Shown piece after piece: positions 3,701 through 24,684 of a stretch of DNA of 64,000 nucleotides. The notes under the pieces are model-generated. The model was not told where the DNA came from, ran no database searches, and was given only the letters and a program-made list of their open reading frames with translations. The DNA is from an uncultured Clostridia bacterium. Lineage in GTDB: Bacteria; Bacillota; Clostridia; TANB77; CAG-465. The stretch is from NCBI GenBank assembly GCA_947584535.1, contig CANPWO010000001.1:19816-83815 (forward strand), in the 5' to 3' direction. Made by a program: the position numbers and the translations under genes. Within the stretch, counting starts at the first letter, position 1; each line of letters starts with the position of its first letter.

Positions 3701-5025
3701 ATGTAAGTTGAATAATAATTTAACCATTTCATCTCATCATCACTAATAATATTATTCATTACAAAACGCATTTCTTCAACAGATAAACTTTCAAATATCT
3801 TAGTATCAAAAGAATTCATAGTTGTACTTGTAGAATAACTAGAATTTTGAGCTAAATGAAAATCTTTAAATATTTTATATCTATTTAATGGGTTTGAACC
3901 ATTTGGATCATCTTGATCTTCTGGTGCACCAGTTACCCATGAACCTACACTTTGTGAATGTGTTAATGATAATGCTACCATCATCTTTTTATATAACTCG
4001 TTAAATTTTACATTATTTTTTGTTGTTTCTGTATTATTTAAATCATCTGCATATTCTGTGCGTAAGTCATTTAATATTTTTAGTGATGTTGCATAGTTAC
4101 CATCTGGTTCTCCACCTAGCAAAAATAATCTTAAAGTGTCTACATCTTCCATTAACCATGTAACTACATCTTCATAACATTTATCATAATTCATTAAAGC
4201 TTGTAAAATATCATATCCTACATTATTTACAAATTCTCTTTGTAATAGAATCTTTTCATATTCTGCTATATTGTAGTTATCTTTACCTTTTATTATATCA
4301 TCATAATATGATACTTCTTTTACTATATCAAAAACTTGATTTTTAGGTTCATATCCATCTTTAACAAGTTTTGCATCTGCATAAACTACATCATCATGCC
4401 ACATAGAGTACCAACTATCTCCATTTTCATATGCATAAAGTCTTAAATATTTTACATCTTTTATATCAATATCTACATATTTAGCATCATTCCAACCTTT
4501 TAAAGTATTAGTGTTATATACTTGTTTCCACTGTGTTTCTCCTTCTTTTAAAGTATATACTGTTATATTTGCACCTGAATTATAATCAGTACTAATTGAA
4601 GAAGCATCAATTCCTATATATGCCTGAAATTTATCATATGATGTACTAAGAGCAGATAAATCATAAATTACATTAGATGATGCCCAAGCTGAAACACCTT
4701 TTATATAATAATTCTTTTTTCCATTCACATTTACAGATATCATTTGACTATTTCCATTTTTGTCTTTTCTATAATGATAACCTGGCTCAACATAAGTTTC
4801 AAAAGATTTATCTTCACTATCTTTTATTTTTTCAACATAATCAATATCACTTAAATAAACCATTTTATCAGCGTCAACACGCGTTGCAAAATAGTTTTTA
4901 ACTTTTCCTTTAATTACTGTATTAGTACTAAAACTAAACAAGCATAGTACTATAACAACAAATAGAAAAATTATAAATGATATGTTATAAATAATTTTTT
5001 TATTATTTTTTTCAATCCTCTCCAT
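706..5025 (-). CDS. large cell-surface protein with NPCBM-like and F5/8 type C (discoidin)-like carbohydrate-binding modules and Ig-like repeats, membrane-anchored at both ends
   Basis: 1439-aa ORF. N-terminal TM helix (IIYNISFIIFLFVVIVLCLF). NPCBM-like segment (LSDIDYV...SAWASSNVIYDL...FQAYIGIDASS). Discoidin-like segment (NLLDGSLNTIWHNLWDGS...YVPRQDGGNGTI). Repeated Ig-like modules (VTATLKL / VTVKLVS / VKAKLVA). Ser/Asn/Glu-rich linker and C-terminal TM helix (IPVIVIFVVMAVVLIGIVVAIV). Confidence 0.75.
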   Translation of the reverse strand: MERIEKNNKKIIYNISFIIFLFVVIVLCLFSFSTNTVIKGKVKNYFATRVDADKMVYLSDIDYVEKIKDSEDKSFETYVEPGYHYRKDKNGNSQMISVNVNGKKNYYIKGVSAWASSNVIYDLSALSTSYDKFQAYIGIDASSISTDYNSGANITVYTLKEGETQWKQVYNTNTLKGWNDAKYVDIDIKDVKYLRLYAYENGDSWYSMWHDDVVYADAKLVKDGYEPKNQVFDIVKEVSYYDDIIKGKDNYNIAEYEKILLQREFVNNVGYDILQALMNYDKCYEDVVTWLMEDVDTLRLFLLGGEPDGNYATSLKILNDLRTEYADDLNNTETTKNNVKFNELYKKMMVALSLTHSQSVGSWVTGAPEDQDDPNGSNPLNRYKIFKDFHLAQNSSYSTSTTMNSFDTKIFESLSVEEMRFVMNNIISDDEMKWLNYYSTYIKKSMNPYDYIRYTDGYNYNKQDYYLPENQKKWEEKYYLNQDSFQVKYGMPRLWMVFEEGSVCGGLSKTGSNLWGVHGVPSSVVSQPGHAAYIFMQLDSKGRKIWNLGNDVDNWGYSGKTEKLSTRMPLGWGTGSYVGKYPASYVLLAQAALDDTTGDRDTRGNVTISNYESSEELLYLAKVYKDNPEKLEQIYRKAIDRQKLNFDAWLGLVNLYANTERTQTEYLKLVKDVIDALNYYPLPMHDLIRIIEPKLEVVNHAYYQIMFDEALDRAQKATEENVLQPSPCIRVAQYLAGSNDTTVANFSFDGNEDTKGYIKLADKYSDGGVTWQYTVDGISTNKDGTRSGTWSKNIHTPTYKLSDEEIARINTENGISIRIVGAMETIYNIPINKGKLPLNLCANDLENRFIGVNTTLQWRENKDQEWTYFNEKEPNLKGDKKIYVRTGATGTNLASDEEEFDFTSDGEKLDHYYIPLSRISVVGFSSEEKSKNNGVENLLDGSLNTIWHNLWDGSDTKKYIIFKLERPAYIDAIEYVPRQDGGNGTITKAKISVSYDTELNENTKWTTAIESTNWANNIAPKREELNVNNPVSYIKIEALSSVGNFMSATMFNFFEDNTKYDLPAVEIDYSTHIATNKPVTATLKLADANFEDENSGIDEDTLISDVLVLTDKDGNKLPDGADKFEYEFTQSGEHHFYYASKADYEAYLDGKMQFNEIERGQITAKVDWLVTGVPPTTFEYSTTLKTNKDVTVKLVSKDADRGIIITNNNNSDTYTFNDNSSFTFEFIDRYGNEGTATATVNNIDRVAPQGYISYSTQNSTTGSVKAKLVANEKVIILNNGGKDTYTFDKNGTFEFTYTDEAGNMNTTVANVNWIKAKATNNTATSQNNSATSKAQNNYSGQSLNSTNNQLNNLNDTVENSISNSADDSKEITKNETEEITENEKQESEVEKNNLIDDEETNGVKVTSKEKSNIPVIVIFVVMAVVLIGIVVAIVKVARR

Positions 5026-5170
5026 AATTTTTTCTCCTTTGTTTATTCTACTATAATTATATACTAAAAGTTACTTTTAAACAATATTTTTAGTTAAAAA
5101 AAATAAATAAAAATGTCATTATTTACAAGTTATAATTAACGACATTTTTACCTATTAAAAATATAATTAG

Positions 5171-5829
5171 TTATATCATTTTTTCTTTAATATATTTTAT
5201 ATCTTCTATTGATTTATCTATATTAAATCTACCATTTCCAACAGGATAATATACCGAATAGCATTTATATTTTTTCCATCTATATCTTTGTTAAATAATT
5301 TTTTTCTACACTTAGATACAGAAATTTTTTCATCTAGTACAATAGAGCTTACTTGATTACCAAATAAAATAATAACTTTTGGATTAATTATTTCAATTTC
5401 CTTTTCAAGTAAATGAAGATATTTTTTATATACACTATCTGGAAGTGGACGTGCATCAATTTGCGTACATTTTCCTAAATTTGTTATAAAATACTTATGT
5501 TTCTTAACATTTTCATATACTTCATTTGCAAATTCTTCTGTCCACTCATTTGCTTTTATTGCTTTTATTTTATCATATATGTCTTTATCAAGTAAATTTA
5601 GACTATAGAATAAATCCCATATATTTTTTGTACCTATCCAAGGTGATTTTATACCTTTCCAATTCTTAGAAGAATCAACATTCTTTCCTGTTGGATTCAT
5701 AAAAACAAAGCAAATATCGGGATTAGTTTCACAACCACCATTGTATATAGAATCTAAATATTTTGCACCATATTTTTATTGTAATTTATCATATTCTTTT
5801 TTTAAATCATCTAATTGTAATTTTACCAT
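5171..5829 (-). pseudogene. uracil-DNA glycosylase superfamily (family 4-like) gene disrupted by an in-frame TAA and a 3' frameshift
   Basis: An ATG at 5829 opens MVKLQLDDLKKEYDKLQ, followed by TAA, then the same frame continues KYGAKYLDSIYNGGCETNPDICFVFMNPTGKN into the 5218..5700 ORF. GGCETNPDICFVFMNPTG resembles UDG motif A. The C-terminus continues in another frame (YPVGNGRFNIDKSIEDIKYIKEKMI, stop at 5171-5173) after a T-run near 5265. Confidence 0.6.
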
Positions 5830-16355: not shown

Positions 16356-16493
16356 TTATTCTTCTACCTTTTCAAAGAATTCTTTTCCAACTCCACATAA
16401 TGGACAAGTCCAATCTTCTGGTAATTCATCAAATTTTTTTCCTTCTACTTCTTCATCATATATGTAGCCACATATTGTACATTTATACTTCAT
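16356..16493 (-). CDS. rubredoxin (45 aa), not in the ORF track
   Basis: Reverse translation: [45 protein letters not shown]. It has the two rubredoxin knuckles, CxxCG and CPxCG. Lies 20 nt downstream of the flavodiiron gene. Confidence 0.85.
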
Positions 16494-16512
16494 TTTTTTC
16501 CCTCCTTTTTTA

Positions 16513-17682
16513 CTATTTATTTAATATTTCATCTACAAGTGCTTCTAAATATGGTATATCATTTTCTTTTAATGTAGATTTAATAGTAACTACATTTTCG
16601 CATACATTAATATCTTTCATCTTTGCTATAGTATCAAACATTGTTTTAGCTGCACTTGGTGCCCAAGTACCATTTTCAATAATCCCTATAGTTCTTTTTT
16701 GAAAATTACGATGTAATAAATGATTTAAAAATACTTCCATTGGAGTAAATACTCCTCCATTATAGCTTGAAGCTGCAAGTATAATTTTGCCATACCTAAA
16801 TGCTTCTTCAACAGCCTCTGCCATATCATAATAAACTAAATCAACAAGTATAACCTTAGGTGCGTTTTTTTCCTCAAGTATTTTAGCAACTTTCTTTGCT
16901 ACTTCTTTAGTATTATTATGAATTGATGCATAAGCTACAACAACTCCTTCACTTTCTACATCATAATTACTCCAAGTATTATATTTATCTAGATAATACT
17001 CTAGATTATCTTTAAGAATTGGTCCATGTAAAGGACAAATTGTTTTTATATCAAGTGTAGCAGCTTTTTTAAGAAGTGCTTGTACTTGCATACCATATTT
17101 TCCAACAATATTAAAATAATATCTACGAGCTTCACAAGTCCAATCCTCATCAGTATCAAGTGTTCCAAACTTACCAAATGCATCTGCTGCAAATAGTACT
17201 TTTTCTTCCTTCTCATAAGCTACCATTACTTCTGGCCAGTGTACCATAGGAGCCATTACAAAAGTAAGTTCATGTTTTCCAATATTTAATGTATCTCCTT
17301 CTTTTACTATAACCTTTCTTTTATCTAAATCATCTATATTAAAAAATTGTTCAATAAACTTAAATGTTGTAGCATTTCCTACTATCTTCATATCAGGGTA
17401 CTTATTAGCAAGTACTTTTACATTAGAGCCATGATCTGGCTCCATATGAAGAACGACCAAATAATCTACGTTTTTACCATCTAACTCGCTTTCTAAATTA
17501 TTTAACCATTGATTAGTAACACTTTCATCTACTGTATCCATTACAACATTTTTCTCGTCTTTTATTAAATAAGAATTATATGACATTCCATTTGGTACAT
17601 CATATTGGTTTTCAAAAAGTCTAATTTCTTTATCATTTGCTCCTATATATCTTATACTCTCACTTATATTTATATCTTCCAC
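16513..17682 (-). CDS. flavodiiron protein (FprA-type O2/NO reductase: metallo-beta-lactamase plus flavodoxin domains)
   Basis: 389 aa. Di-iron motif HMEPDHGS and a C-terminal flavodoxin-like part ([16 protein letters not shown]). Confidence 0.9.
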
Positions 17683-19887: not shown

Positions 19888-20220
19888 ATGATTAAAACAA
19901 GACTTGACGGAACTGAAAAAGATGCATTTGAAAAGGCTGATAAACTGGCTGGGAAAAATAACGTTGCAAAAAAGATACTTTACGCAATTATAAGGCAAAA
20001 TTTGCTTGATGAGTCTTTTTTTGATATACTTGACAAATTAGGTATATATGACAATCGTATAACATCATTATATAGATGTTGTAAAGGTTGTCAAATACTC
20101 GATTTTGCCGTTACAGTGTATGAACTTGATGAAGGAAATGTTTCCCGGGACGACATCAATGCAATAAAAACTCAGGCTGAGTTTAAGGCACTTAAAGAAA
20201 AATATGAAAGCAAAATATAA
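19888..20220 (+). CDS. hypothetical protein (110 aa)
   Basis: ORF preceded by the GGGAGG RBS; no motif recognised. Confidence 0.5.
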   Translation: MIKTRLDGTEKDAFEKADKLAGKNNVAKKILYAIIRQNLLDESFFDILDKLGIYDNRITSLYRCCKGCQILDFAVTVYELDEGNVSRDDINAIKTQAEFKALKEKYESKI

Positions 20221-20276
20221 AGCAAAATAAAATGAAAAAAGAGTGATTTTACAAATGTAATTTCACTCTTTTCTTA

Positions 20277-20723
20277 TCATAACAATTTATTTATTTCTCT
20301 TTTAAATTCATTTATATCTTTAAATTGTCTATAAACTGATGCAAACCTAACATAAGCTATTTCATCTAAATTTCTTAATTTTTCTATTACCATTTCACCT
20401 ATTTTTTGTGCATCAATTTCTTTACTTACAGTACTTGTAAGTTCAAACTCTATTTCATTTACTGCTTTTTCTATTTCCTCTCTTGAAATAGGTCTTTTCT
20501 CACAAGCTCTAAGCATACCATTTATGATTTTATCTCTGTTAAATTCTTGTCTTGCACCATTTTTTTTAATTACCATAATAGGAGTATATTCTATTTTTTC
20601 ATAAGTTGTAAAACGATGTTTACAATTTAGACATTCTCTCCTTCTTCTTATAGCATTTGTTTCTGGTACATTTCTTGAATCAACTACTTTGCTTTCTTCA
20701 AAGCCACATTTTAAACATTGCAT
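20277..20723 (-). CDS. nrdR: transcriptional repressor NrdR
   Basis: 148 aa. N-terminal zinc ribbon CLKCG...CLNCKHRFTTYE and an ATP-cone. Overlaps the nrdG stop by 13 nt. Confidence 0.95.
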   Translation of the reverse strand: MQCLKCGFEESKVVDSRNVPETNAIRRRRECLNCKHRFTTYEKIEYTPIMVIKKNGARQEFNRDKIINGMLRACEKRPISREEIEKAVNEIEFELTSTVSKEIDAQKIGEMVIEKLRNLDEIAYVRFASVYRQFKDINEFKREINKLL

Positions 20724-21247
20724 AATACTCTCCTTTTTTCAAAATCATATAAGCAAGTTTTATTAGTAGCCAAAGAATGTGGTACATCTATTGCTCTTTG
20801 ATTAGTACTTCCTCTAAATGGAGCTGCAATACTTTTTAATTCTTCTACAAATTTACCATCAATTAATATATCTGTACTTTCAAGTAGTTTCATATAGCCA
20901 TTTTCTTCTGTTGCATTTTCTAGTAAATATTCATATTCAAAGCCAGTATATGTCATTACATCATATCTATTTCTATCAAGTTTTGAAATTAAATTTGCTA
21001 CCTGACCTGCTTGCATAAATGGCTCGCCACCAGAAATAGTTACTCCTTTAAGTAATGGATCTTTCTCTATATCTTTTACTATATCGTTTATATCAACATA
21101 TTTACCACCCTCAAAGTCGTGTGTTTGAGGATTATGGCAACCTTTACATTTATGAGGGCAACCTTGTGTGAACACTACATACCTAATTCCTGGTCCATCT
21201 ACAATAGACTCTTTAACTATTCCAGATATTTTCAATAAATCTTTCAC
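20711..21247 (-). CDS. nrdG: anaerobic ribonucleoside-triphosphate reductase activating protein (radical SAM)
   Basis: 178 aa. GPGIRYVVFTQGCPHKCKGCHNP cluster motif. Confidence 0.9.
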   Translation of the reverse strand: MKDLLKISGIVKESIVDGPGIRYVVFTQGCPHKCKGCHNPQTHDFEGGKYVDINDIVKDIEKDPLLKGVTISGGEPFMQAGQVANLISKLDRNRYDVMTYTGFEYEYLLENATEENGYMKLLESTDILIDGKFVEELKSIAAPFRGSTNQRAIDVPHSLATNKTCLYDFEKRRVLCNV

Positions 21248-21262
21248 TTTTTAATTCAACTC

Positions 21263-21544
21263 CTAGCCACAGCAAGAACAACTTACATTATGTTTTACTC
21301 TATCTCTTTCTTCTGCTCTTTTTCCGTCATTAAATCTATCTACTGTTCCTACTAAATATCCTGTTATTCTTCTTATTCTCTCAAATGGAGCTGTTTCAAA
21401 TGTATATTTCATATCAACAAAATCTCCGTCAACTGTTAATTCTAAAGTATCTACAACTTCATTTGGGAATTTCTCAGCTAAATATGCTTTATATCCTTCA
21501 ATTTCTTTTTCTTCTAGGTTTCCACCTTTTACCATAACTTTCAT
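21263..21544 (-). CDS. stand-alone NrdD-type glycyl-radical domain protein (93 aa)
   Basis: Has its own GGAG RBS 9 nt before the ATG. Unique N-terminal 53 aa. The C-terminus FERIRRITGYLVGTVDRFNDGKRAEERDRVKHNV is nearly identical to the NrdD C-terminus, including the RRxxGY glycyl-radical site, and is then followed by SCSCCG. Confidence 0.75.
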   Translation of the reverse strand: MKVMVKGGNLEEKEIEGYKAYLAEKFPNEVVDTLELTVDGDFVDMKYTFETAPFERIRRITGYLVGTVDRFNDGKRAEERDRVKHNVSCSCCG

Positions 21545-21593
21545 AATATCAATCTCCTTCTTTATTTATATTTTTTTTATTTAAACACAGTAT

Positions 21594-24035
21594 TTATACA
21601 CTATGTTTTACCCTATCTCTCTCTTCTGCTCTTTTTCCGTCATTAAATCTATCTACTGTTCCTACTAAGTAACCTGTTATTCTTCTTATTCTCTCAAAGC
21701 CTTCATTTTTACCAACATGCTCTTTTCTTCCACATTTTGGACATACATCATTTATAATTCCTGTATATCCACAAACTGGGTCTCTATCAACTGGATGGTT
21801 AATTGCACCATAACCAATTCCATTTTCTTTCATACATCTAACAACAGCTTCAAATGCTTCCATATTTGTAGTTGGATCACCATCAAGTTCAATATAACTT
21901 ATATGTCCACCATTTGTTAAATTATGATATGGAGCTTCTAATTTTATTTTCTCAAATGCATTAATGTTATAATATACTGGAACATGGAAAGAGTTTGTAT
22001 AATACTCTCTATCTGTAACCCCTTCTATAACTCCAAATCTCTTTGCATCCATTTTAACAAATCTTCCTGAAAGTCCTTCAGCTGGTGTAGCAATTAAAGA
22101 GAAATTAAGTCCTGTTTCTTTACCTGCTTCATCCATTCTTTCTCTCATATGACCTATTATTTTAAGTCCTAGTTCTTGTGCCTCTTTACTTTCTCCATGA
22201 TGTTTACCAATTAATGCTTTAAGACATTCTGCAAGTCCTATAAATCCAGTTGTAAGTGTACCATGCTTTAGTACCTCACCAACCTCGTCATTTGGTTTTA
22301 ATTTATCAGAGTCTAACCATACTCCTTGACCCATTAAGAATGGATAATTCATTACTTTCTTTTTAGATTGTATTTTCAATCTATCAAGTAATTGTTCTAT
22401 AACTAAATCAATTTTCTTATCTAATAATTTGAAGAATTCATCTACATCCCCATTTGCAATAATACCAAGTCTTGGCAAATTAATAGATGTAAAGCTTAAA
22501 TTTCCTCTACCACAAGTAACTTCTCTTGTTTTATCGTAATTATTAGCTATAACTCTTGTTCTACAACCCATGTATGCTATTTCTGTATTATAATCACCTG
22601 GTTTATAATATTGTAAATTAAATGGTGCATCAATAAATGAGAAGTTAGGGAATAATCTTTTAGCAGATACTCTACAAGCAAGTTTAAATATATCGTAGTT
22701 TGGTTCTCCTTCATTATAATTTATACCATCTTTAATCTTTAATATTTGTATCGGGAATATTGGAGTTTCACCATTTCCAAGACCAGCATCAGTTGCAAGT
22801 AATACATTTTTCATTACCATTCTTCCCTCTGGTGTTGTATCAAGTCCATAGTTAATACTACTAAATGGAACTTGTGCACCAGCTCTTGAATGCATTGTAT
22901 TTAAATTATGTATAAATCCTTCCATTGCTTGATATGTAGCTCTATCTACTTCTTTTTCAGTATATTTTACTGTAAATTTTTGAATTTTATCTGCAAGTCT
23001 TTTTCCAAACTTTTCAGTTAATATCTTACTTTCTTCTTGTAAATATTTACTTGTATTGTGTAAAGTTGGATATATATGTTTTTCATTATATATTTTTTCT
23101 GTTATTTTTTTAGCAATATTTTCTGAATCATTTTCTTTGATTAAATCTTCTACTGCTTGTCTTAATGTAAGTACACTTTCAACACTTGGTGTAACATCTT
23201 TTTCTTCTTTTACTTTTTCAAGTATTGAGTCTACAATTTCATCTGCAGTATTTTCTTCAAATAATAACTCAATTGCTTTAGATAAATTACTTAAATATGT
23301 TTTTGCATAACTTTTTCTAACACCAATTGCCATAGCATATTCAAAGTTAGGTATACTTTGTCCACCGTGTTGATCATTTTGATTAGATTGTATAGCTATT
23401 GCTGCAAGTGCTGCATAAGAACCTATACTTTGTGGTTCTCTTAAATGACCTTCTCCTGTTGAGAAACCATTTTTAAATAATTTAATTAAATCAATTTGGC
23501 AACATGTAGTTGTTAATGTTAAAAAGTCTAAATCATGTATATGTATATCTCCATTTATATGCGCATCAGCATGTTCTTTCTTTAGTACAAACATTTGATA
23601 GAATTTCTTAGCACCTTCACTACCATATTTTAACATTGTTCCCATTGCAGTATCTGCATTAACATTTGCATTTTCTCTTTTTACATTACTATCTTTTGCA
23701 TCTTTAAATGTTAATTGTTCATATATTTTCATTATCTCAGAGTTCATTTCTCTTTTTTGAGTTCTTTCAGCTCTATATAAAATATATGCTTTGGCAGTTG
23801 CTGCGTGTCCTTCTTCTATTAAAACTTTTTCAACAGCATCTTGAACTTGTTCTACTGATGGATATTCAACTTTTAATTCTTTTTCTAAGTAATCGCAAAC
23901 TTTACTTGCAAGTTCTTGTGCTTCTTTGTAATTTTCTCCTCCAACAGAAACTGCTGCTTGATAAATTGCATTTGAAATTTTCTCAATATTAAAAGGTACC
24001 ATTCTACCGTCTCTTTTAAGGATCTTAGTTATCAT
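21594..24035 (-). CDS. nrdD: anaerobic ribonucleoside-triphosphate reductase (class III RNR)
   Basis: N-terminal ATP-cone (ITKILKRDGRMVPFNIEKI). C-terminal Cys cluster (CGYTGIINDVCPKCG) and glycyl-radical motif RIRRITGYLVG. Start placed at ATG 24035, downstream of the GGGGTGG RBS. Confidence 0.95.
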   Translation of the reverse strand: MITKILKRDGRMVPFNIEKISNAIYQAAVSVGGENYKEAQELASKVCDYLEKELKVEYPSVEQVQDAVEKVLIEEGHAATAKAYILYRAERTQKREMNSEIMKIYEQLTFKDAKDSNVKRENANVNADTAMGTMLKYGSEGAKKFYQMFVLKKEHADAHINGDIHIHDLDFLTLTTTCCQIDLIKLFKNGFSTGEGHLREPQSIGSYAALAAIAIQSNQNDQHGGQSIPNFEYAMAIGVRKSYAKTYLSNLSKAIELLFEENTADEIVDSILEKVKEEKDVTPSVESVLTLRQAVEDLIKENDSENIAKKITEKIYNEKHIYPTLHNTSKYLQEESKILTEKFGKRLADKIQKFTVKYTEKEVDRATYQAMEGFIHNLNTMHSRAGAQVPFSSINYGLDTTPEGRMVMKNVLLATDAGLGNGETPIFPIQILKIKDGINYNEGEPNYDIFKLACRVSAKRLFPNFSFIDAPFNLQYYKPGDYNTEIAYMGCRTRVIANNYDKTREVTCGRGNLSFTSINLPRLGIIANGDVDEFFKLLDKKIDLVIEQLLDRLKIQSKKKVMNYPFLMGQGVWLDSDKLKPNDEVGEVLKHGTLTTGFIGLAECLKALIGKHHGESKEAQELGLKIIGHMRERMDEAGKETGLNFSLIATPAEGLSGRFVKMDAKRFGVIEGVTDREYYTNSFHVPVYYNINAFEKIKLEAPYHNLTNGGHISYIELDGDPTTNMEAFEAVVRCMKENGIGYGAINHPVDRDPVCGYTGIINDVCPKCGRKEHVGKNEGFERIRRITGYLVGTVDRFNDGKRAEERDRVKHSV

Positions 24036-24071
24036 AATAATACCACCCCTTGTATACATCCTTTCTCTTAA

Positions 24072-24087
24072 ACACAATATGTTGTGT
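24072..24087. promoter_or_regulatory. NrdR-box-like palindrome upstream of nrdD
   Basis: ACACAATATGTTGTGT is a near-perfect 16-bp palindrome of the acaCwAtATaTwGtgt type, 37-52 nt upstream of the nrdD start. Confidence 0.6.
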
Positions 24088-24345
24088 TTTTAACTAGTTT
24101 GATTATAGCACTAAAAAAAATATGTGTCAACACTTTTTTTATAAAAAATTTAAAAAAATTTTGACATTTTTTTACAGTATTTTCAGCTGTAATTTTACAA
24201 GGTTTTTTAACTACATAAGCTCATTACTTTATAATGTAACATAAGTGTAAATTTTAATTATGTATTTATTTTATGTTTGAGAATATGCATGATTTTTATA
24301 TATAAAAAAAGATGAAATAGAATTAACTATCTCATCATTTTTTAA

Positions 24346-24684
24346 TTATATTAATTCGATAAAAATACCTAAGCATCCATATTTACTTATATCCTCAGCT
24401 GAATAATATGTAGTATCTTTAACTGCATCTTCTGGTGTTTTATACTTTTTATATAGATACATATCAAAAGTATCACTATACATATCAAGTAAAGTATTAT
24501 AATGTTTTAAATCTGTTACTTTAACTTTTATGCTTTCATCTTCAAGTGGTCTTTTTATAAAAGTTATAGTATCTCCTACTTTTATTTTTTGCCTTTTTTC
24601 ATCATTTAGTCTATACTCTACTTTTTTCTTACCATTTTTTATAAGATTAAATGGCTCTACATCAAGTCTCATTATATGTTCCAT
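24346..24684 (-). CDS. ASCH (PUA-like) domain protein
   Basis: 112 aa. MRLDVEPFNLIKNGKKKVEYRLNDEKRQKIKVGDTITF is the usual ASCH N-terminal beta-barrel pattern. Confidence 0.6.
   Translation of the reverse strand: MEHIMRLDVEPFNLIKNGKKKVEYRLNDEKRQKIKVGDTITFIKRPLEDESIKVKVTDLKHYNTLLDMYSDTFDMYLYKKYKTPEDAVKDTTYYSAEDISKYGCLGIFIELI

Follow-up and report, generated by a model that had tools for sequence, protein, structure and literature searches.

Within the 64-kb window analyzed here (the whole stretch studied, 64,000 nucleotides (nt) of contig CANPWO010000001.1 from an uncultured Clostridia bacterium), the region 20277-24130 of the minus strand is a single operon for a class III ribonucleotide reductase (RNR), with the gene order nrdD, small open reading frame (ORF), nrdG and nrdR (Table 1). 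The small ORF, which is separated by 49 nt from the preceding nrdD and by 15 nt from the following nrdG, is the subject of this work: it encodes 93 amino acids (aa) and carries a second copy of the glycyl-radical domain (GRD) found at the C terminus of NrdD. An initial annotation of the sequence had placed such an ORF, with a ribosome-binding site of its own, between nrdD and nrdG in an operon that includes nrdR. The gene was confirmed by its ATG start and by an AAGGAG 9 nt upstream, and the Pfam and NCBIfam assignments of its neighbors agree with the proposed arrangement.

A second copy of the NrdD radical segment

The radical segments of the small gene and of nrdD form a direct repeat of 102 nt (21284-21385 versus 21597-21698) with 95% identity and a spacing of 313 nt. 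An in-frame repeat of this length and identity with unrelated flanks is far beyond chance; the initial annotation was correct about the repeat and its flanks, although it gave the length as 97 nt. At the protein level, BLASTP aligned residues 54-87 of the small protein with the last 34 residues of NrdD at 33 of 34 identical positions (∼97%), which bears out the proposal that the C-terminal half is essentially the end of the reductase, radical glycine included. That glycine is Gly62 in the small protein (codon 21359..21361), the glycine before the tyrosine in the motif RRITGYLVG, and its NrdD counterpart is Gly788 (codon 21672..21674). The product also includes the peptide MKVMVKGGNLEEK. When the small protein was compared by BLASTP with the last 168 residues of NrdD, no similarity was found beyond the glycyl-radical segment. 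Hidden homology of the N-terminal domain (N-domain) to NrdD was considered and ruled out, as BLASTP aligns the GRD alone.

Profile searches place the ORF in the same way. The only Pfam family detected is NRDD (PF13597), which matches residues 53-85 at profile positions 532-562 of 562, and the score of 31.5 exceeds the cut-off of 26.2 owing to the tail alone. NCBIfam NrdD models match at their C-terminal positions only (31-45 bits versus cut-offs of 326-764). The small protein therefore does not qualify as a full-length NrdD with its barrel and finger-loop cysteine, as it matches only the last 31-36 model positions, and it does carry the C-terminal NrdD motif, RxxGY followed by ...DRVKH. Among known structures, PDB 8p23 (NrdD residues 704-738) matches the tail with an E value of 2.9e-10, T4 NrdD matches as well, and a PDB profile search pairs residues 51-85 with the C-terminal 35 residues of NrdD chains, RITGYLVG included. 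Neither Pfam Gly_radical (PF01228), the NCBIfam GrcA models nor PDB chains of pyruvate formate-lyase (PFL) or YfiD match the small protein.

Past the radical segment, the window protein ends in a Cys-rich tail that is not present in the window NrdD. Such tails after the ..VKH end (SCSCCG, CC, CSC.., CDCALEEIA) occur in 41 of 222 small proteins, and some full-length NrdDs are Cys-tailed too (ECNCD, QCNCDD, KCDCDNK), including those with the 3' ends at loci L001, L088 and L089. These may be metal-binding or redox tails, recalling the C-terminal Cys pairs of class I/II RNRs.

Operon organization in the window

The window nrdD matches Pfam NRDD (E 6.7e-208), the ATP-cone family and NCBIfam NF005497 (1147 bits). 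Its start, the ATG at 24035, agrees with homologues (MITKI...), and its product carries an ATP-cone, the Zn-ribbon cysteines and an intact glycyl-radical tail of its own. Both nrdG (TIGR02491, 145 bits) and nrdR (TIGR00244, 203 bits) score above the curated equivalog cut-offs of 126.1 and 124.65, respectively. The promoter-like site upstream of nrdD, of the sigma-70 type, agrees with the consensus at 12 of 12 positions and is the sole perfect match in 20100-24400. The palindrome downstream of it, ACACAATATGTTGTGT, which resembles an NrdR box, has one mismatch to the consensus of that element, reportedly ACACWATATATWGTGT; no other site with fewer than three mismatches was found in the 64-kb window. 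No terminator-like sites were detected within the operon, nor did Rfam reveal a riboswitch or other RNA element there, its matches in the window being two tRNAs only.

Table 1. Positions of the features of the nrdD operon in the window
Feature	Position	Strand	Basis or remark
Promoter-like site upstream of nrdD	24102..24130	-	TTGACA-17-TATAAT with extended TG
NrdR-box-like palindrome	24072..24087	.	between the -10 hexamer and the nrdD start
nrdD, class III RNR catalytic subunit, 813 aa	21594..24035	-	Pfam, NCBIfam
Glycyl-radical segment of NrdD (FERIRRITGYLVGTVDRFNDGKRAEERDRVKHSV)	21597..21698	-	direct-repeat copy 2
Ribosome-binding site AAGGAG of the small ORF	21554..21559	-	9 nt before the ATG; read from sequence
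Small ORF, 93 aa, NrdD-type GRD protein	21263..21544	-	ATG start; homologues, synteny
N-terminal domain of the small protein, residues 1-53, predicted beta-alpha-beta-beta, family-defining	21386..21544	-	profile search, AlphaFold2
Glycyl-radical segment of the small protein, residues 54-87	21284..21385	-	direct-repeat copy 1
Cys-rich C-terminal tail SCSCCG, residues 88-93	21266..21283	-	not in the window NrdD
nrdG, radical-SAM activase	20711..21247	-	TIGR02491, Pfam Fer4_12 and Radical_SAM
nrdR, repressor of RNR genes, last gene of the operon	20277..20723	-	TIGR00244; Zn_ribbon_NrdR and ATP-cone

The window has a G+C content of 27%, and its nearest relatives are uncultured Bacillota of gut metagenomes. 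A 110-aa ORF on the plus strand (19888-20220), convergent with nrdR, has no Pfam match. Some 2.6 kb downstream of nrdR, the minus strand (16356-17682) encodes a rubredoxin of 45 aa and a flavodiiron-type protein with ODP/metallo-beta-lactamase and flavodoxin domains; these are O2/NO-detoxification genes of the kind that adjoins small genes located away from nrdD in other genomes.

The two copies evolve in concert

In seven genomes that have both an intact NrdD and the small gene, we compared the radical segments of the two genes over 96 nt. Identity between the two is 91-98% within a genome, versus a mean of 88-89% between genomes. As protein, the segments are 100% identical in six of the seven genomes, and they are reciprocal nearest neighbors in five of the seven. 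Lineage-specific substitutions are common to both copies, such as AEVNDRVKH in L085 and DAKKAEVKDRVKH in L091. In an exact permutation test over 5040 pairings, no other scored as well as the true pairing of genomes, whether all sites or third codon positions alone were compared. That third positions show the signal too points to gene conversion, which would keep the spare always matched to its enzyme. Duplication, gene conversion or constraint had been named as possible causes in the initial annotation; the permutation test is in line with this, with gene conversion or constraint keeping the copies matched.

A conserved N-terminal domain defines a large family

The N-terminal half of the small protein had been thought unique. 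It is instead a conserved domain: a profile of the 53 N-terminal residues, searched against 1.84 billion cluster representatives, matched 297 clusters (50% identity) at E<=1e-3 and 70 at E<=1e-10. Save for a few repetitive false positives or assembly fragments, nearly all matching proteins are shorter than 140 aa with the domain at the N terminus, and every complete one examined continues into FxRIRRITGYLVG...DRVKH. Whole-protein searches recovered more than 120 full-length homologues of 87-99 aa at 58-100% identity. The family signature, which the window ORF carries according to alignments, profile and AlphaFold2 (AF2) prediction, is an N-domain of ~50 residues with conserved E14, Y18, P27, G40, V43 and Y47, joined to an NrdD-type GRD in a protein of 85-100 aa. 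Across a 123-sequence alignment the radical motif is invariant. Asp replaces the radical Gly in P0166, P0269 and P0243 (..ATDYLV.., ..SADYLV.. and ..ITDYLVG..), so these proteins would carry no radical; they could be inhibitors or decaying copies. Several sources leave the small protein unnamed or call it 'hypothetical protein'.

The ratio of nonsynonymous to synonymous substitution rates (dN/dS) is mostly 0.2-0.4 in the N-domain, and in the radical segment dN is 0.01-0.09 at a dS of 0.2-1.1; judged by these rates, the small gene is under purifying selection. The possibility of a one-off duplication scar was rejected on the grounds of family size, selection and synteny.

From the 123-sequence alignment, AF2 predicts a beta-alpha-beta-beta N-domain (predicted local distance difference test, pLDDT, of 81-88 for residues 1-50). 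The Gly-loop region is predicted with low confidence (pLDDT 53-72), as expected if the loop folds only inside a partner. Foldseek searches of the PDB with both AF2 models gave no significant neighbor (best E 0.03-0.17), and the non-significant matches are generic beta-alpha-beta-beta folds, e.g. HPF/YfiA, which offer no functional lead. A sequence search of the PDB likewise found no significant relative of the N-domain, the last ∼35 residues alone matching NrdD chains.

Several reductases lack a radical domain of their own

At least four lineages, namely a human-gut bacterial clade, an abundant high-GC bacterium and several clades of phages, have an NrdD without a GRD. The protein either stops no more than 3 residues from the radical-glycine position or keeps a degenerate relic of the domain. 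Glycyl radical enzymes are cleaved by O2 at the radical glycine (PMC13450708, PMC12288474), and several of the independent truncations thus end at or within three residues of the O2 cleavage position. The truncated NrdDs keep every alignment-invariant residue of the catalytic core, including the finger-loop MGCRTRV. Where the small gene adjoins such an nrdD, no other carrier of a glycyl radical is encoded in the locus, the loci inspected spanning 10-20 kb. A programmed frameshift or hidden GRD was ruled out by six-frame searches, which found one GRD motif per locus.

In the human-gut clade (L090, L094-L097), the operon is organized as in the window, and the small protein is indexed in 117 collection blocks. 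The NrdD tail reads ...CPHCGRKE[HN]ESDIKCSERLKRFVTHGECASLE..., a short remnant of FERIRRITGYLVG that has degenerated and has another residue in place of the glycine, and the single RITGY motif of each locus lies within the small gene. In 13 phage-like IMG/VR loci, NrdD stops just past the Zn-ribbon, e.g. at ...CPCCGRTEHITITEKVRRIK, with tails such as ..EKVRRIK, ..ERVRRIK and ..ETIRRLK directly before the stop codon. There the small gene abuts or overlaps the nrdD stop codon and is followed by nrdG. Neighboring genes in one of these loci, L211, match phage-only PHROGs. The closest 120 homologues of the phage-like truncated NrdD are all 602-616 aa long and all without the tail, many of them on ~60-kb contigs. 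At the L211 junction (L211:4984-5003, AGG AGG ATT AAG TAATG), stop and start codons overlap, and the AGGAGG of the two Arg codons in the relic also serves the small gene as Shine-Dalgarno sequence.

To sample phage reductases irrespective of the small gene, 80 NrdD loci were drawn from IMG/VR with an alignment as the query; a phage scan with the window NrdD alone returned nothing useful. The tail is absent in 10 of the 80. Four of these ten have an N-domain plus GRD gene nearby, five have no partner within 2.5 kb, and L270 alone has a minimal GRD ORF, a 62-aa frame between the truncated nrdD and nrdG (L270:2280-2468) that consists of a ~25-residue leader and a GRD, with no N-domain. On an AT-rich phage-like contig, L274, a 267-aa ORF (4772-5575) separates the truncated nrdD from the small GRD gene and is possibly a mobile insert.

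One of the five partnerless loci, L266, encodes the same protein as P0391, an NrdD of 750 aa that counts 1802 member sequences. P0391 (L338/L339) belongs to the high-GC bacterium, where it lies on a 1.7-Mb contig with nrdG adjacent and ends in ..TERIKRIKVEG. Thirteen related clusters (82-100% identity) have variant truncated tails, e.g. ..TERMKRIQVEE and ..KERIPRIHV, and sister clusters of 773-776 aa have the full tail PFERIRRITGYLVG...VKH. Within 10 kb of the truncated P0391 nrdD no small gene or other GRD gene was found, so its partner, if any, would be a detached gene.

The GRD-less lineages, which tell us more than any other finding here, amount, as far as their sequences show, to natural deletion experiments. 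Barring a second nrdD elsewhere in the genome, the small protein must supply the radical domain to such an NrdD in trans, and in some lineages it appears to be an obligatory subunit instead of a spare.

Genomic contexts and phage-borne copies

Our classification of contexts covers 255 loci, taken from species-representative genomes, metagenomes, IMG/VR and look-ups of exact proteins. The small gene lies behind an intact nrdD in 12 and behind a truncated nrdD in 18; in 165 it is detached, with no nrdD in at least 2.8 kb upstream and neither nrdD nor nrdG anywhere in the locus, and in 60 the flank is too short for a call. To the question whether the gene always neighbors nrdD and nrdG, the answer is therefore no, as ~85% of informative loci are detached. 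The operon position seen in the window recurs in 8 other species-level relatives. The order nrdD-small gene-nrdG-nrdR with a complete NrdD tail was found at L001, L081, L085, L088, L089 and L091, which represent different species, as their flanking genes differ.

Detached copies, the commonest state, are found in Ruminococcus, Oscillospiraceae and other Clostridia, and their immediate neighbors are heterogeneous. Carriers include Ruminococcus flavefaciens FD-1 and ATCC 19208 and Ca. Limiplasma OY776489. Rubrerythrin is the most frequent gene immediately downstream (9 of 70 loci) and a Crp/Fnr-type regulator the most frequent upstream neighbor (8 of 74); the two flank the small gene jointly in Ruminococcus flavefaciens-like genomes, and at one further locus it lies between a Crp/Fnr gene and the gene for a flavodiiron protein. 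Judged by gene content, this neighborhood fits a role in oxygen stress. In 4 of 70 genomes, metK, encoding S-adenosylmethionine (SAM) synthetase, is immediately downstream of the detached gene (e.g. at L002, L004, L006 and L032), an adjacency of note because installation of a glycyl radical consumes SAM.

Phages also carry the gene on its own. In 16 IMG/VR phage loci (the L235-L256 group), it is located between tail-fiber/acyltransferase genes and a holin-endolysin cassette, which is a classical moron position. A GIY-YIG endonuclease and an antirepressor are encoded nearby, and neither nrdD nor nrdG was found within 5 kb of these small genes. A tblastn search of 50,697 phage records found the full protein in two unannotated metagenomic fragments only, and PHROGs contains no family for it.

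Discussion

The small ORF of the window belongs to a conserved, syntenic family whose radical segment evolves in concert with that of NrdD. We consider it probable that it encodes an autonomous GRD protein specific for class III RNR, which is activated by NrdG and acts in trans as a replaceable spare. According to this proposal, nrdD, the small gene, nrdG and nrdR would be co-transcribed from an NrdR-controlled promoter, and NrdG would place the radical on Gly62. The GRD loop (FERIRRITGYLVG...) would enter the barrel of an NrdD without a usable GRD, where the finger-loop cysteine (MGC491RTRV) would thereby regain its catalytic thiyl radical. We infer that, in the window organism, the small protein binds and restores NrdD molecules whose tail O2 has cut at Gly788; as the GRD of the window NrdD is intact, the small protein would there be a redundant, replaceable copy, the 'spare part' of the initial annotation. 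The beta-alpha-beta-beta domain would act as a scaffold, or as a module on which NrdG, NrdD or both dock, and, more speculatively and by analogy with the N-terminus of YfiD, may help NrdG to recognize the small protein. Support for action in trans comes, at the level of sequence, from the natural GRD-less NrdDs, the concerted evolution of the two copies and the solo copies of phages.

Several observations weigh against this proposal. With an intact NrdD in the window, the small protein would on paper not be needed. From the split systems it follows that function in trans is feasible, but not that O2 repair is the role here. The oxygen-stress neighbors come essentially from one Ruminococcus lineage and one other locus, and thus reflect few independent events. 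In the IMG/VR sample, 70 of 80 phage NrdDs are intact and without a small gene, and the split at L270, which has no N-domain, implies that this domain is not strictly needed for complementation.

In a variant of the same mechanism, which we consider unlikely, NrdG would act mainly or preferentially on the small protein, which would be the working radical carrier even in genomes whose NrdD keeps its tail; the RNR would in effect be a two-component enzyme, and the NrdD tail secondary or being lost. Such a primary role would account for the repeated, independent loss of the NrdD GRD once the small gene is present, for the position of the small gene directly upstream of nrdG, and for the detached state of most family members together with at least one abundant bacterium whose truncated NrdD has no adjacent partner. 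However, the NrdD GRD is intact in seven species and protein-identical to that of the small protein, which argues that both copies are used, and most of the sampled phage NrdDs work without any small gene.

It is improbable that the arrangement is a neutral or transitional duplication, in which the 3' end of nrdD was captured behind a pre-existing small ORF and is homogenized by gene conversion as a stage toward fission, with no selected function. While gene conversion alone could keep the repeat similar, and the truncated NrdD tails do resemble decayed relics of the duplicated segment, the two-copy state is kept across species whose N-domains differ by up to ~40% (aa), and dN/dS is well below 1 in both halves. 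Moreover, in complete proteins the N-domain never occurs without the GRD, and detached and phage-borne copies are still intact.

A regulator or decoy that competes for NrdG or plugs the NrdD barrel, acting as a radical sink, buffer or inhibitor, has a similarly slight chance of being correct. The few members with Asp for the radical Gly, which could only bind, and the sharing of an operon with the repressor gene nrdR would suit such a function, but the radical motif is invariant in the 123-sequence alignment, and GRD-less NrdD lineages keep nrdD, nrdG and the catalytic residues; with a purely inhibitory small protein, these lineages would be left without an active RNR in the locus. That the ORF is an unexpressed annotation artifact or pseudogene, as the lack of a name in several sources might suggest, is scarcely credible: the gene has a strong ribosome-binding site, a place in an operon and hundreds of intact homologues, and it is under purifying selection.

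Beyond the window, we see about even chances for a broader view of the proposed trans-acting spare: in many gut Clostridia and their phages, class III RNR is, or can become, a two-component enzyme with the GRD as an exchangeable 'cartridge' (N-domain plus GRD). Some genomes would keep both copies and homogenize them, others would have dropped the built-in one, and temperate phages would carry the cartridge as a moron.

Glycyl radical enzymes are irreversibly destroyed by O2, and to our knowledge the sole known repair device is GrcA/YfiD, which serves PFL. If the broader view is correct, class III RNR would be the first glycyl radical enzyme besides PFL for which a spare-part or repair system is described. 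The family would answer an open question for the enzyme that supplies strict anaerobes with DNA precursors, and a phage cartridge would sustain the deoxynucleoside triphosphate supply of the host after oxygen exposure. The GRD-less NrdD systems and phage solo copies are ready natural experiments, the hypothesis is directly testable in vitro, and the outcome bears on the oxygen tolerance of gut anaerobes, phage auxiliary metabolism and substrate recognition by NrdG. There is also an annotation problem, in that truncated NrdDs such as P0391 are labeled as complete reductases, and small ORFs are either unnamed or so labeled too.

Comparison with known systems

The precedent for rescue of an O2-cleaved glycyl radical enzyme is YfiD acting on PFL (PMC8683613, PMC13450708), and the N-terminus of YfiD promotes radical installation (PMC13450708). 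The YfiD paper of 2021 and a review of June 2026 both describe validated spare parts for PFL only and leave the question open for other glycyl radical enzymes. The initial annotation knew of no NrdD equivalent of GrcA, and the literature we searched, mostly non-subscription, likewise contained no description of an NrdD spare part, an autonomous radical protein or a split NrdD of this kind. Its comparison with GrcA (YfiD) also stands at the level of design, as a small carrier protein is encoded beside the cognate enzyme and activase.

The small protein shares with E. coli GrcA/YfiD and phage T4 Y06I the layout of a stand-alone carrier of the C-terminal radical domain of a large enzyme; in both systems the cognate enzyme is encoded in the same genome, the activase is a dedicated radical-SAM enzyme, phage-borne versions exist, and the proposed role is to replace an O2-cleaved domain (PMC8683613, PMC13450708). 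The solo copies of the L235-L256 group resemble the carriage of Y06I, a GrcA homologue, by T4 (PMC8683613). In contrast to GrcA/YfiD, the small protein is homologous to NrdD rather than PFL, across ~34 residues only, and as it matches neither Gly_radical nor GrcA models, it is not a member of the GrcA/YfiD family, although similar in design. Its N-terminal half is conserved and predicted to be folded, whereas that of YfiD is disordered, and its gene, unlike that of GrcA, is often located inside the nrdDG operon. Furthermore, NrdD has lost its own domain in several lineages; the papers cited report no such loss for PFL. Compared with the C-terminal domain of NrdD itself (Prevotella copri 8p23, T4 1h7a), the small protein lacks the barrel, ATP-cone and Zn-ribbon; in NrdD the Gly loop is preceded by the Zn-ribbon, and in the small protein by the beta-alpha-beta-beta domain.

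Split RNRs are known from phages, including nrdA-a/nrdA-b of Aeromonas phage Aeh1, nrdJ-a/b of a Thermus phage and intron- or intein-split nrdD (PMC3653736). The truncated-NrdD loci resemble these in encoding the catalytic subunit as two adjacent genes, presumably for a two-polypeptide assembly. Yet in the known cases introns, inteins or homing endonucleases cut the catalytic core (PMC3653736), whereas here the break falls on the radical glycine, a domain of its own has been added to the small piece, and whole NrdD and piece coexist in the window. The small protein is thus set apart from GrcA by its family, its target enzyme, its folded added domain and its obligate two-piece versions.

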